The notes under the pieces were generated by a model. That model made no database searches, was not told the DNA's origin, and worked only from the letters and a program-made list of their open reading frames with translations. The translations under genes were made by a program, and so were the position numbers. Below are positions 1 through 4,370 of a DNA stretch of 4,370 nucleotides, in pieces. This stretch comes from a virus (Duplodnaviria > Heunggongvirae > Uroviricota > Caudoviricetes), in the IMG/VR virus record IMGVR_UViG_2734482585_000011; one strand, given 5' to 3'. Every line of letters begins with the position of its first letter. Positions within the stretch are counted from its first letter, which is position 1.

Positions 1-1056
1 GATTCCCGACCCGGTACGCTGAATGATTTTCTCGGTGCCATGACGGAGGATGATGCCCGTCCGGAGGCACTGCGCCGTTTTGAGCTGATGGTGGAAGAGG
101 TGGCGCGTAACGCGTCCGCGGTGGCACAGAACACGGCAGCCGCGAAGAAATCAGCCAGCGATGCCAGCACATCAGCCCGTGAGGCGGCAACCCATGCGAC
201 TGATGCTGCAGATTCAGCACGTGCAGCCAGCACGTCAGCCGGACAGGCCGCTTCGTCGGCTCAGTCAGCGTCTTCCAGCGCAGGAACGGCATCAACAAAG
301 GCCACTGAAGCCTCAAAAAGTGCTGCCGCTGCAGAGTCCTCAAAAAGCGCGGCGGCTACCAGTGCCGGTGCGGCGAAAACGTTAGAAACGAATGCGGCAG
401 CGTCACAACAATCAGCAGCCACTTCTGCATCCACCGCGACCACGAAAGCGTCAGAAGCTGCCACCTCAGCCCGGGATGCGTCGGCTTCAAAAGAGGCGGC
501 AAAATCATCAGAAACGAACGCATCATCAAGCGCCAGTAGCGCAGCTTCCTCGGCGACGGCGGCTGCAAATTCTGCGAAGGCGGCCAAAACGTCCGAGACG
601 AACGCCAGGTCTTCTGAAACGGCAGCGGGACAGAGTGCCTCAGCTGCGGCAGGCTCAAAAACAGCGGCTGCGTCGTCTGCCAGCGCCGCGTCAACAAGTG
701 CCGGGCAGGCCTCAGCCAGTGCCACCGCCGCCGGAAAATCGGCAGAAAGCGCCGCATCATCCGCTTCAACAGCCACAACGAAGGCTGGCGAAGCCACTGA
801 GCAGGCCACGGCAGCAGCGAGGTCAGCTTCCGCAGCGAAGACATCCGAAACGAACGCGAAAGCGTCGGAAACCCGTGCAGAATCCTCAAAAACGGCTGCC
901 GCATCGTCCGCCAGTTCGGCGGCGTCATCGGCATCATCGGCGTCTGCTTCAAAAGATGAGGCGACCAGACAGGCGTCAGCAGCGAAGGGCAGCGCCACGA
1001 CGGCATCCACGAAGGCGACAGAGGCTGCTGGTAGTGCGACGGCAGCAGCTCAGAGC
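1..1056 (+). CDS. stf: Side tail fibre protein Stf, Ala/Ser-rich shaft segment (5' partial at window edge, 3' end abuts N gap)
   Basis: Frame 1 is open from nt 1 (DSRPGTLNDFLGAMTEDDARPEALRRFELMVEEVARNAS...) with no stop before the gap. The translation matches my recollection of the lambda Stf region ...PGTLNDFL.AMTEDDARPE.LRR.ELMVEEVARNAS..., followed by a long Ala/Ser/Thr-rich low-complexity shaft. The first Met at 40 is internal, so the true start lies upstream of the window. Confidence 0.86.
223..1056 (+). repeat. In-frame periodic repeats (42-nt / 14-codon register) within the stf shaft-coding region
   Basis: Recurring peptide units sit at integer multiples of 42 nt. AAK(T/S)(L/S)ETNA starts at 370, 496, 580 and 832 (spacings 126, 84, 252). 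AASTSAGQA starts at 223 and 685 (spacing 462 = 11x42). STATTKA(S/G)EA starts at 430 and 766 (spacing 336 = 8x42). Hand-counted GC over 241-300 is about 62%. Confidence 0.6.
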
Positions 1057-1408
1057 NNNNNNNNNNNNNNNNNNNNNNNNNNNNNNNNNNNNNNNNNNNN
1101 NNNNNNNNNNNNNNNNNNNNNNNNNNNNNNNNNNNNNNNNNNNNNNNNNNNNNNNNNNNNNNNNNNNNNNNNNNNNNNNNNNNNNNNNNNNNNNNNNNNN
1201 NNNNNNNNNNNNNNNNNNNNNNNNNNNNNNNNNNNNNNNNNNNNNNNNNNNNNNNNNNNNNNNNNNNNNNNNNNNNNNNNNNNNNNNNNNNNNNNNNNNN
1301 NNNNNNNNNNNNNNNNNNNNNNNNNNNNNNNNNNNNNNNNNNNNNNNNNNNNNNNNNNNNNNNNNNNNNNNNNNNNNNNNNNNNNNNNNNNNNNNNNNNN
1401 NNNNNNNN
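1057..1408. other. Run of 352 N (assembly gap or masked sequence) inside stf
   Basis: Directly visible. It follows the repetitive shaft-coding region. The stf frame is 1 before the gap and 3 after it. Confidence 0.99.
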
Positions 1409-2957
1409 AATCCAGCTAAGCAGCGCGACCAACAGCACGTCTGAAACGCTGGCGGCAACGCCAAAGGCAGTAAAAGCAGCCAATGACAATGCTGAGAAAC
1501 GTCTGCAGAAAGATCAGAACGGTGCGGATATCCCTGGCAAAGACACCTTTACGAAAAATATTGGTGCCTGCCGTGCCTTCGGTGGGTCAGTAAGCACAAC
1601 AACAGGAAACTGGACGACTGCACAGTTTATCGAGTGGCTGGATTCTCAGGGAGCATTTAACCATCCATACTGGATGTGCAAGGGTTCCTGGTCTTATGGC
1701 AATAATAAAATCATTACTGATACTGGCTGCGGTAATATTCATCTCGCCGGAGCTGTCATTGAAGTAATGGGGATAAAGTCAGCGATGACGATCCGCATTA
1801 CCACTCCGACCACATCCAGCGGTGGCGGAACAACCAACGCCCAGTTTACCTATATTAATCACGGAACAGATTATTCACCTGGCTGGCGAAGGGACTATAA
1901 CTCCAGAAATAAGCCAACGGCATCAGAGATCGGGGCGCTACCGTCAGGTGGAACAGCAGTATCATCAGTTAATCTGGCTTCAAAAGGTCGGGTAGCCGCG
2001 CTGACAGACAATACGCAGGGGGCAGCAGGTCTTGAGTTATACGAGGTGTATAACAACGGATATCCAACAGCGTATGGAAATATCATTCACCTGAAAGGGA
2101 TGACAGCCGTTGGCGAAGGTGAGTTACTCATCGGCTGGAGTGGTACAAGCGGTGCTCATGCTCCGGCATTTATTCGTTCACGACGGGATACGACCGACGC
2201 AAACTGGTCGCCGTGGGCGCAGCTTTACACCTCGGCTCATCCTCCTGCAGAGTTTTATCCAGTCGGTGCACCAATCCCGTGGCCATCAGATACCGTTCCG
2301 TCTGGTTATGCCCTGATGCAGGGGCAGACTTTTGACAAATCTGCTTACCCGAAACTTGCAGCCGCTTATCCGTCAGGCGTGATCCCTGATATGCGTGGCT
2401 GGACGATTAAGGGCAAGCCCGCCAGTGGTCGTGCCGTATTGTCTCAGGAACAGGATGGCATTAAATCGCACACCCACAGCGCCAGCGCATCCAGTACGGA
2501 TTTGGGGACGAAAACCACATCGTCGTTTGATTACGGCACTAAATCCACGAATAACACCGGGGCGCATACGCACAGTCTGAGCGGCTCTACAAGTTCAGCT
2601 GGGGCCCACCAACATAGTCAGACTGGGCCCAGAACGAATAGCGGGAGTCAACCTACTGGAATGTTTCCGGCAGGGAGTACTCAAGTTAGCGGGACTAATC
2701 AGGTTGGTATCAGTGGCTCATTAACCAGTGGCACCTCCCAATGGGTAGGTAAATCATCTTCAGAAGGAAACCATACACACTCACTGTCCGGCACAGCAGC
2801 ATCTGCGGGTGCACACGCGCATACTGTCGGTATTGGTGCTCATACGCACTCTGTTGCGATTGGTTCACATGGACACACCATCACCGTTAACGCTGCTGGT
2901 AACGCGGAAAACACCGTCAAAAACATCGCATTTAACTATATTGTGAGGCTCGCATAA
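1409..2957 (+). CDS. stf: Side tail fibre protein Stf, C-terminal distal/receptor-binding part (5' end abuts N gap)
   Basis: Frame 3 is open from the gap edge (first full codon 1410) to TAA at 2955-2957. The translation begins [22 protein letters not shown]..., the conserved tail-fibre junction motif as I recall it from lambda Stf. The C-terminus carries seven HxH motifs between 2469 and 2876 (SHTHS, AHTHS, AHQHS, NHTHS, AHAHT, AHTHS, SHGHT). The track ORF 1674..2957 is only the part of this frame after an internal Met. Confidence 0.88.
2944..2948 (+). promoter_or_regulatory. Shine-Dalgarno (TGAGG) for tfa
   Basis: GAGG at 2945-2948, 8 nt upstream of the tfa ATG at 2957; it lies inside the 3' end of stf. 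Confidence 0.4.
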
Positions 2958-3538
2958 TGGCATTCAGAATGAGTGAACAAGCACGGACCATAAAAATTTA
3001 TAACCTGCTGGCCGGAACTAATGAATTTATTGGTGAAGGTGACGCATATATTCCGCCTCATACAGGTCTGCCTGCAAACAGTACCGATATTGCACCGCCA
3101 GATATTCCGGCTGGTTTCGTGGCTGTTTTCAACAGTGATGAGTCATCGTGGCATCTCGTTGAAGATCATCGGGGTAAAACGGTTTATGACGTGGCTTCCG
3201 GCGACGCGTTATTTATTTCTGAACTCGGCTCATTACCGGAAAATGTCACCTGGTTATCCCCGGAAGGGGAGTTTCAGAAGTGGAACGGCACAGCCTGGGT
3301 GAAGGATACGGAAGCAGAAAAACTGTTCCGGATCCGGGAGGCGGAAGAAACAAAAAACAGCCTGATGCAGGTAGCCAGTGAGCATATAGCGCCGCTTCAG
3401 GATGCTGTGGATCTGGAGATCGCAACGGAGAAAGAAACCTTGTTGCTGGAAGCTTGGAAAAAGTATCGGGTGTTGCTGAACCGTGTTGATACATCAACTG
3501 CACCGGATATTGAATGGCCAGTAGCACCTATAGGGTAA
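2957..3538 (+). CDS. tfa: Tail fibre assembly protein (chaperone) Tfa
   Basis: 193-codon ORF, ATG 2957 to TAA 3536-3538. The translation [79 protein letters not shown]... is near-identical, from memory, to lambda Tfa. The ATG overlaps the stf stop by 1 nt (TAATG), the usual stf-tfa arrangement. Confidence 0.93.
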
Positions 3539-3624
3539 ATTCGTAATGATTACCTAAATACGTTATTCTTTTGTTAAAAAAGTGATTTTGCTATAGGTAG
3601 GGAGTATGTTCTTGGATTAAGAAT

Positions 3625-3655
3625 AAAAAATCGCCATGAAAGAGCTTCATGGCGA
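3625..3655 (-). terminator. Intrinsic (rho-independent) terminator for leftward transcription
   Basis: Perfect 10-bp inverted repeat tcgccatgaa (3631-3640) / ttcatggcga (3646-3655) with a 5-nt loop (agagc). It is flanked on the left by A6 (3625-3630), which is a U6 tract immediately 3' of the hairpin on the minus strand. There is no U tract on the plus-strand side. Confidence 0.5.
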
Positions 3656-4287
3656 GTACATAAACGTACAAAATGTGATGAAAGTAGAGTGGCGTAAGCC
3701 ACTATATTAAGATATGACAATAGCGAAGAAAAGTAAATAACATTTTATGGACGTTTAATTGTTAATTATAAAAACTAGAGTGCCCGATATTGTTTATCTT
3801 GCTTTAAAATAATGTACTCAAACCAAATTTTTGAGCTAAAAGCTCAAATAATATAAATGCAATAATAATGTTTAATAAGACAATTAGCTTGCTTTGTATT
3901 TTCATTTCGGAATACTGTTAAGTAACTTTGATGACCCTAACAATAGATCGGAATTTTCTTAGAGTCAATGGTCACTGTTTTTGCTTGCAAAGCAAATGTT
4001 TTGGTGGTTATAAGTCGTCTTAATATAGTCACGCATGCAACTTGTTCCATGCGGAGATTAAAGATTGGAATATAACGCGAAGATGGAATTAAATTACATT
4101 TGCAATAATTAATTTATTATTACTCAATAATTACCGATATTATTATTGTAAATTAATCATTAGAATGCAAAAAGAAATGTAACGGCAAAATAAGAGGACG
4201 ATAGCTGAGAAAAAAGCGTGCTTTCCCAATCTGGGGCAAATCACGTCTGAATGACACCTGAAAACAGGTGGTAGCCTCAAGAAGGCT

Positions 4288-4310
4288 GGTGATGCTGCCA
4301 ACTTACTGAT
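4288..4310 (+). repeat. IS1 left terminal inverted repeat (IRL, about 23 bp)
   Basis: GGTGATGCTGCCAACTTACTGAT is the canonical IS1 terminal repeat. Flanking host sequence ends at 4287 (...aagaaggct). Confidence 0.85.
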
Positions 4311-4342
4311 TTAGTGTATGATGGTGTTTTTGAGGTGCTCCA

Positions 4343-4370
4343 GTGGCTTCTGTTTCTATCAGCTGTCCCT
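4343..4370 (+). CDS. insA: IS1 InsA (transposition regulator), N-terminus, 3' partial
   Basis: GTG GCT TCT GTT TCT ATC AGC TGT CCC translates to (M)ASVSISCP, the InsA N-terminus as I recall it. The GTG start at 4343 is assumed from that recollection. Confidence 0.6.

Follow-up and report, generated by a model that had tools for sequence, protein, structure and literature searches.

What does a lambdoid prophage carry in the AT-rich DNA just past its tail-fibre genes, where no long open reading frame (ORF) is found? We addressed this question in a window of 4,370 nucleotides of a tailed virus (Caudoviricetes; IMG/VR record IMGVR_UViG_2734482585_000011), numbered from its first letter, in which the stretch from 3539 to 4287, downstream of the tail fibre assembly gene tfa, had been singled out by an original prediction made from the letters only. 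That prediction considered a decayed cargo gene, a regulatory or small-RNA (sRNA) locus and a small-protein locus. The stretch is a mosaic of modules rather than a decayed gene, and its tfa-proximal module, here called the cassette, is probably a moron that encodes a small membrane protein of the YncL family and whose 3′ untranslated region (3′ UTR) is structured and possibly yields an sRNA. Morons of lambdoid phages are autonomous pieces of cargo with their own promoter and terminator, placed between conserved phage genes, as are lom and bor of lambda and the cargo that lies past tail fibre genes. Three features had escaped the original prediction: a minus-strand ORF of 33 codons (3905-3804), a hairpin at 3631-3655, and a junction with the insertion sequence (IS) IS1A at 4287.

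The 33-codon ORF was intact in 32 distinct full-length cassette sequences and in the loci L061-L064, always with an unchanged start codon, stop codon and length. Compared with the most divergent allele (L007), the window showed 18 nucleotide differences, distributed 7/1/10 over codon positions 1/2/3, and five amino-acid replacements, mostly conservative. The proportion of differences was 0.56 at synonymous sites (pS) and 0.088 at nonsynonymous sites (pN), corresponding to a ratio of nonsynonymous to synonymous change (dN/dS) of 0.09; three pairwise comparisons of alleles gave 0.09, 0.04 and 0.06. The probability that at most 1 of 18 changes falls on codon position 2 is 0.007, and none of 20000 random placements of 18 substitutions left the ORF open with five or fewer amino-acid changes. 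Taken together, the codon-position pattern, the low dN/dS and the outcome of the random placements are strong evidence, from comparison of alleles, for a translated gene. None of the other small ORFs of the stretch was conserved in divergent copies, and none matched any NCBIfam family. The mean Kyte-Doolittle hydropathy of the encoded peptide over 17 residues reaches its maximum, 2.94, at residues 7-23, and the peptide is predicted to form a single transmembrane helix.

The sole NCBIfam match for all three alleles was YncL (NF000537), with E values from 1.3e-5 to 7.5e-5 and scores of 22.5-25 bits over model positions 1-28 of 30. The window allele scored 25 bits (E 1.3e-5), and YncL of Escherichia coli K-12 itself scored 68.6 bits on the same model. 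An ungapped alignment of the phage peptide to K-12 YncL from M1 to G28 scored 60 against 20.2 +/- 4.1 for shuffles, about 9.7 standard deviations above them, and 0 of 5000 shuffles reached 60. K-12 YncL (b4598) has 31 amino acids and the phage peptide 33, and over Met1-Gly28 they share 11 identities (39%) with no gap: Ser5, Asn12 (inside the hydrophobic segment), Ala16 and Leu19-Phe20 are common to both, as is a (K/R)-F-G motif after the segment. Each peptide has one hydrophobic core at residues 7-23, with a Kyte-Doolittle value of 2.94 in the phage peptide and 2.34 in YncL. The two genes differ in their surroundings. The phage gene is located in a prophage cassette, whereas yncL occupies the chromosomal patD-ortT locus; no DNA similarity extends outside the coding alignment; and a terminator directly follows the yncL stop, while the phage gene is followed by a 3′ region of about 180 nt with a conserved structured block. 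Of the possibilities first considered, a small-protein locus at the moron position has thus gained support from a YncL-like ORF with a dN/dS of about 0.09 in a cassette that recurs after tfa.

Heat shock and minimal medium both induce YncL, a small membrane protein whose production causes sublethal membrane depolarisation, nucleoid condensation, a phage-shock response and reduced protein synthesis; overproduction lowers viability (PMC12542507). It is a substrate of RseP in vivo (PMC10470546), and RNA interaction by ligation and sequencing (RIL-seq) recovered chromosomal yncL mRNA as one of the partners of the sRNA KilS, which is derived from the kilR 3′ UTR in the Rac prophage (PMC8175672).

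Databases hold few traces of the phage peptide. It has no match in Pfam, PHROG or PADLOC. The exact peptide is present as an unnamed protein call on only 2 contigs in a collection of about 15 billion predicted proteins, and a phmmer search of 1.84 billion representatives returned only the peptide itself and one variant of 43 amino acids. This variant (P0018) shares residues 1-26 and then has a divergent C-terminus (…LAQKIWFEYIILKQDKQYRAL), which a frameshift close to the end of the ORF probably produced; disrupted alleles therefore exist, though they are rare. Searches of phages by tblastn with the peptide or YncL came back empty and missed even phages with the identical ORF; low-complexity filtering or the statistics of short queries are the presumed cause, and since known carriers were missed, these negatives are uninformative. 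At the DNA level, the cassette sub-segments 3610-3790 and 3780-4000 were each found in 827 of 5426 complete E. coli genomes, on chromosomes only, and no annotated feature lay under these matches among the RefSeq records listed. IMG/VR contained 49 loci altogether, all closely related. Literature searches with the RNA and peptide sequences and with related concepts found no earlier description.

On the same strand as the ORF, beyond a spacer, lies the second conserved element of the cassette, a structured RNA block (Table 1). Its 5′ part consists of about 36 unstructured nucleotides, followed by a stem-loop (SL1) with a 6-bp stem, which is the palindrome already listed at 3688-3703, and then by a U-rich linker, a terminator hairpin and a U-tail. 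The 119-nt fold has a free energy of -27.2 kcal/mol (z = -5.9 against dinucleotide shuffles). Positions 3620-3709 were 90-97% identical to L007, with flanks of 50-63%; the spacer itself showed 50-63% identity to L007, with indels, and, with 21 variable columns per 30 nt, exceeded every other part of the cassette half nearest the ORF. Across the 32 distinct copies, only 4 of 60 columns varied in 3629-3688, as opposed to 10-20 per 30 elsewhere. The RNA block is thus the best-conserved part of the cassette, although the synonymous sites of the neighbouring ORF have diverged by about 56%. The hairpin at its 3′ end was the strongest of the stretch in a terminator scan; its stem is present in all copies, and the outermost pair and the U-run alone vary, in divergent lineages. 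ORF and RNA block occurred together in every copy examined (52 copies and L061-L064).

Table 1. Features of the window, with positions counted from its first letter.
Feature	Position	Strand	Remarks
stf	40-2957		Lambdoid prophage tail region; N run at 1057-1408
tfa (tail fibre assembly), left neighbour	2957-3538	+	193-aa ORF; homologues annotated as tail fiber assembly protein in L001, L003, L004 and L060
Cassette (module A)	3539-~4116	-	~578 bp, about 30% GC; recurs after tfa
Structured RNA block, 3′ UTR of the small gene or sRNA	3622-3745	-	Conservation and fold
Parts of the RNA block	SL1 3703-3688; U-rich linker 3687-3656; terminator hairpin 3655-3631; U-tail 3630-3622	-	
Intrinsic terminator hairpin	3631-3655	-	11 pairs (5 G-C), loop of 3, then UUUUUUAUU
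Spacer between ORF stop and RNA block	3746-3803	-	Poorly conserved
Small gene, predicted YncL-family membrane protein	3804-3905 (start 3905)	-	MKIQSKLIVLLNIIIAFILFELLAQKFGLSTLF; stop codon included
Sigma-70-like promoter match, TTGACT-17-TATTGT	3940-3968	-	9/12 in consensus scan; predicted start ~3933
AT-rich spacer	4117-4202	none	24% GC; att-lambda-type phages only
Start of right-arm block	4203-4287	none	First 85 bp; 48% GC; non-coding; palindrome 4255-4270
IS1A left end	4288-4370	+	Terminal inverted repeat and start of insA

The substitutions found within the stems also bear on the strand. Those at 3698 (C>U), 3690 (A>G) and 3645 (G/A), all one-sided, leave the stems paired as G.U when read on the minus strand, whereas the plus strand would have A.C mismatches there; by a rough estimate, the chance that three stem substitutions are compatible with G.U pairing on the minus strand only is about 0.03. 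A plus-strand ORF of 24 amino acids (3636-3710) was considered as the cause of the conservation and set aside: the substitutions, mapped by hand, were mostly non-synonymous, and the peptide had no family match.

In layout, the block is like the Hfq-dependent sRNAs of enterobacteria: in about 120 nt it combines a stem-loop with a single-stranded U-rich stretch and ends in a Rho-independent terminator and its U-tail. It is also like the sRNAs derived from 3′ UTRs, of which CpxQ, SroC and KilS are known cases, in lying at the 3′ end of a small gene. The block is outside all Rfam families: the matches obtained were below threshold only, MicC (RF00121) with 22.8 bits against a gathering score of 90 (E about 1) and Esr41 with 15.6 against 102, and homology to Esr41 was rejected on that score. 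Because of the MicC match, and because side tail fibres of the lambda type use OmpC, pairing with ompC was tested. The best duplex between the block and the translation-initiation region of ompC reached -19.4 kcal/mol, a value matched by 6.6% of shuffled sequences and, in the background, by 11% of sites, while the control duplex of MicC with ompC reached -32.0 kcal/mol, attained by 0%. With pairing at background level and 22.8 of 90 bits, homology to MicC and repression of ompC were rejected as well. The block differs from these known sRNAs in its Rfam scores, in its lack of covariation and in the missing support for a MicC-type pairing with ompC.

These likenesses raise the alternative of an independent gene for an Hfq-dependent, trans-acting sRNA (about 3740-3622, minus strand), transcribed from its own promoter and regulating mRNAs of the host or the phage, with the small ORF separate or secondary. 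We consider this possible but unlikely. The order of the parts, from an unstructured 5′ end through stem-loop and U-rich linker to a terminator tailed by six U, is typical of such a gene, and the fold has a z score of -5.9. The spacer between ORF and block is the least conserved part, as expected of a promoter or spacer region, and a -10-like hexamer, TAAAAT, lies immediately upstream of the block, but the consensus scan found no minus-strand promoter at 3745-3790. Likewise, the block is the most conserved part of the cassette, but its more variable portion (11 of 36 positions) is the 5′ part, the usual position of a seed. The Rfam alignment to MicC covers the full length, but is weak; the scores are far under the gathering thresholds, the sole target tested, ompC, is unsupported, and no covariation was seen. 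Since the ORF is clearly under its own selection, an sRNA gene would in any case not be the whole story.

For the YncL-type moron with a structured 3′ UTR, the promoter is putative. The -35 hexamer of the sigma-70-like match upstream of the ORF is invariant in the divergent L007 copy, where the -10 reads TATCGT. The arrangement as a whole resembles a moron in that the cassette lies between conserved phage modules, past stf-tfa, on the opposite strand and with its own intrinsic terminator, in that its GC content is about 30% against 48-62% for its neighbours, and in that it is present or absent in otherwise related prophages. It differs in that its cargo, merely 33 codons and a structured RNA, is far below typical moron size.

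Several observations weigh against this interpretation. Promoter-like matches in the region (5, with 4.0 +/- 1.8 expected) were not above chance, which is why we treat the promoter as inferred. No purine-rich Shine-Dalgarno sequence lies within 15 nt 5′ of the ATG at 3905 (UUAACAGUAUUCCGAAAUG), whereas K-12 yncL has AAGGTGG. Transcription and translation of the cassette are predictions from sequence. The curated YncL cutoff of 35 bits was not reached by any of the three alleles, and part of the similarity falls within the hydrophobic segment; the colinearity, length and hydrophobic core nevertheless agree, and we therefore regard the peptide as a diverged member of the YncL family, not as YncL. 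No homologue beyond E. coli prophages was found in 185,579 species-representative genomes, searched with a 21-mer of the RNA block and a codon-degenerate pattern of the ORF, so that the comparative depth is shallow. In the RNA, the U-tail is interrupted (UUUCUUAUU) in divergent lineages, and the identity of the block across lineages could be due to a recent recombination patch rather than to constraint. The helices are 98% paired and nearly invariant; the formal pair count shows no two-sided compensatory change, so that the structure is not proven by covariation, for which diversity is too low. The sRNA locus of the original prediction accordingly finds support in a conserved, stably folding block with a terminator and none in covariation, and is plausible and unproven.

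The hydrophobic nature of the peptide raises another explanation, namely a type I toxin-antitoxin-like module that serves prophage maintenance or abortive infection, with the peptide as the toxin and the RNA block, or an antisense RNA, as the antitoxin or interaction region. Several type I toxin-antitoxin systems reside in prophages, and the peptide is small, single-pass and of toxin-like size, but it matches no PADLOC model. ORF and RNA block are strictly linked; the block, however, is on the same strand as the ORF, and its duplex with the ORF mRNA (-25.2 kcal/mol) is no better than that of shuffles (-26.2 +/- 4.0 kcal/mol), a value at the shuffle mean that led us to reject a trans-pairing antitoxin. 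The missing Shine-Dalgarno sequence and the long structured mRNA may recall the translationally inert mRNAs of such toxins, but neither the scan nor direct reading revealed a convincing plus-strand pair of promoter and terminator for an antisense RNA. A toxin-like action would fit with YncL, whose overproduction causes depolarisation of the membrane and a loss of viability (PMC12542507). On balance, we consider a type I module quite improbable.

Comparison with relatives accounts for the stretch as a whole. At more than 98% identity, its full 749 bp occurred in 280 complete E. coli genomes as well as in three free phages (mEp332, PhiR70_1 and ev099) that have four records between them. In the intact locus, tfa is followed by about 1.5 kb without a credible annotated gene, then by a regulator of the AraC family and by IS2 remnants, with the lambda attachment site next to ybhB-bioA at the end in prophages. 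These intact relatives, free phages included, share the same non-coding sequence and hold no bigger ORF, and the degradation of a larger gene was rejected on this ground; the decayed cargo gene of the original prediction is thereby left unsupported, and no ordinary intact gene was found in relatives of which the stretch could be a degraded copy.

Partial matches in other genomes (query positions 1-578) set the boundaries of the cassette. It was about 96% identical in prophage remnants at the Qin/ydfJ site (L006) and 77-91% identical in prophages that carry sitABCD (L007, L057-L059; about 77-80% in L007 and L058). The settings in which it follows tfa are att-lambda (L004 and mEp332, PhiR70_1 and ev099), Qin/ydfJ, and the vicinity of sitABCD cargo. 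The AT-rich spacer that follows the cassette was covered by the full-length class of matches only and was unaligned in L006 and L007. The last piece before the IS1 junction, with stops in all six frames, belongs to a different module: query positions 665-749 have matches of 93-100% in prophages integrated at Rac/uspF (L008) and at zinT/serU (L009), close to their right ends. In the intact L004 this right-arm block spans 5665-5859 and gives way to 340 bp (5860-6199) with 97% identity to K-12 DNA, namely the 3′-terminal 62 nt of serU (tRNA-Ser) and the adjoining chromosome. L004 5665-6199 looks like the scar of an ancestral serU-integrated prophage plus captured host DNA.

With these comparisons in hand, it is very improbable that the stretch is functionally inert, AT-rich filler, whether recombination scars, a spacer bound by H-NS or sequence far upstream of the AraC-family gene, and that its conservation reflects only the recent spread of one prophage segment. 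In favour of this view, identity exceeds 95% in most copies, the lack of ORFs is no more than chance predicts at such a composition, recombination joints are plain to see in the mosaic along with an IS insertion and a piece of captured host DNA, and every record examined leaves the stretch unannotated. Against it, divergent lineages (77-91% identity) keep the ORF with a dN/dS of about 0.09 and the 7/1/10 codon pattern, conservation is strongly uneven with its peak on the terminator-bearing block, palindromes and terminators exceed shuffle expectation, and the cassette occurs in other prophages without an AraC-family gene. For the last reason, the cassette is not simply the upstream region of that gene, and this candidate was rejected.

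The compositional claims from which the analysis started were borne out. GC content is 31.5% in 3539-4287, 48.5% in tfa and 52-62% in stf (about 62% in its shaft), and the fall begins at the tfa stop codon (3538), so that the sharp AT-rich break past tfa is real; the two 60-nt samples counted by hand were recomputed as 61.7% and 23.3%. The list of ORFs likewise agreed that no frame of 60 codons or more is open across the stretch, the longest being 52 amino acids (extending into IS1) and 48 amino acids. However, 42% of mononucleotide shuffles of the stretch lack such a frame too, which makes its absence uninformative. All four named palindromes were found where they had been placed, and they belong to a real excess: perfect inverted repeats (arm of at least 6, loop of 3-10, nested pairs included) amounted to 16 arm-pairs against 2.9 +/- 2.1 in shuffles, with 0 of 1000 shuffles reaching 16, and there were 2 terminator-like sites in the stretch with 0.6 +/- 0.7 expected. 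Silencing of the AT-rich stretch by H-NS, as also proposed, is plausible.

The right end of the stretch is not a natural boundary. Homology to uninterrupted relatives ends exactly at 4287, and the remainder of the window is 100% identical to positions 1-83 of K-12 IS1A. IS1 takes the place of 550 bp of intergenic DNA (L004 5750-6299) in 79 complete genomes that share this junction, and its far end is 206 bp upstream of the AraC-family gene; the window has lost this intergenic DNA to IS1 as well, and the full IS1 of 768 bp is seen at this junction in L060 (6109-6876). H-NS-silenced genes such as bgl and flhDC are activated by IS insertion, and the position of IS1 upstream of the AraC-family gene recalls such activation; by analogy, the insertion might affect expression of that gene. 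The regulator, a cargo gene past tfa, has 247 amino acids (L004 6506-7249, L060 7083-7826) and HTH_AraC/HTH_18 domains of Pfam; it is 28% identical to AppY over 236 residues, and its best NCBIfam model is YdeO with 149 bits, far under the cutoff of 348.

Cargo of other kinds accompanies the cassette elsewhere. In the divergent lineages it sits between tfa and the iron/manganese transporter operon sitABCD, a cargo of prophage ends (L007 7808-10536, L057 3541-6221, L058 4585-6138, L059 3711-6181). A second, truncated 3′ end of tfa, on the same strand, follows the cassette in L006 (~5580-5700), L007 (5546-5645) and L058 (3516-3615), and the conserved 3′ end of tfa seems to be a recombination anchor for cargo exchange. 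The order tfaD-ybcY-tfaX-appY in DLP12 of K-12 is alike in several respects: minus-strand cargo comes after tfa, then a further 3′ fragment of tfa (K-12 tfaX, L005 4876-5061), as in L006, L007 and L058, and the att-lambda phages have their AppY-like (28% identical) AraC-family regulator downstream of tfa. It differs in that its cargo, ybcY, is a pseudogene of a larger protein, and DNA similarity is limited to the tfa parts. In L008, a prophage of O26 at the Rac site, the right-arm block is flanked by an imperfect direct repeat of about 45 bp at ~4870-4915 and ~5215-5260 (CGTATGCAAGAACGT.C.GCGGTTGG.TGGT...), the upstream copy of which is inside a 55-aa ORF labelled 'capsid protein', probably a mis-annotation.

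Two observations concern the tail genes of the window. Positions 1057-1408 in the interior of stf are 352 N, masked or unassembled, and several of the listed 'ORFs' cross this run artificially. An Rfam match to IS009 at 3300-3498 (218 bits, gathering score 117) lies wholly within the tfa coding sequence, and therefore reflects conserved coding DNA and no independent RNA gene.

For the moron with a YncL-family gene, the following course may be envisaged. A unit directed leftward, opposite to the tail genes, would start from the sigma-70-type promoter at ~3968-3940 with a leader of about 28 nt and continue through the YncL-like gene and a 3′ region of about 180 nt, the last 120 nt of which would form the conserved structured RNA; the terminator would halt the transcript ahead of antisense entry into tfa. 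By analogy with chromosomal YncL, the peptide would become inserted in the inner membrane and cause a partial loss of membrane potential, and such depolarisation might move the lysogen to a low-metabolism, stress-tolerant state or hinder infecting phages. The 3′ block most likely stabilises the mRNA, and it may be released as an Hfq-type 3′-UTR sRNA. The remainder of the stretch is a spacer and the stump of an older prophage arm, ended by the IS1 insertion with its 550-bp deletion. A bolder version, in which one transcript yields both a YncL-like depolarising peptide and an Hfq-binding 3′ RNA that serve dormancy or stress tolerance, or block superinfection, is in our view distinctly unlikely. 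If true, it would provide a phage-borne counterpart of a host stress micro-protein, present in about 15% of E. coli genomes and invisible to annotation.

Morons, small membrane proteins and 3′-UTR sRNAs are already known in kind. What is new here is an unannotated, selection-constrained, prophage-borne paralogue of YncL, together with a conserved RNA, in 15% of complete E. coli genomes. The RNA block provides a concrete candidate 3′-UTR sRNA, which would be new among those of prophages. AT-rich DNA past tail-fibre genes that looks 'empty' can conceal cargo genes of very small size, which may become visible when diverged prophage copies are compared codon by codon. The physiological role of YncL, a stress-induced micro-protein, is still being worked out; a diverged and selected copy on the prophages of about one in seven sequenced E. 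coli genomes, missed by RefSeq, would tie the YncL family to phage biology, and lysogens with and without the cassette offer a natural gain-of-function system.

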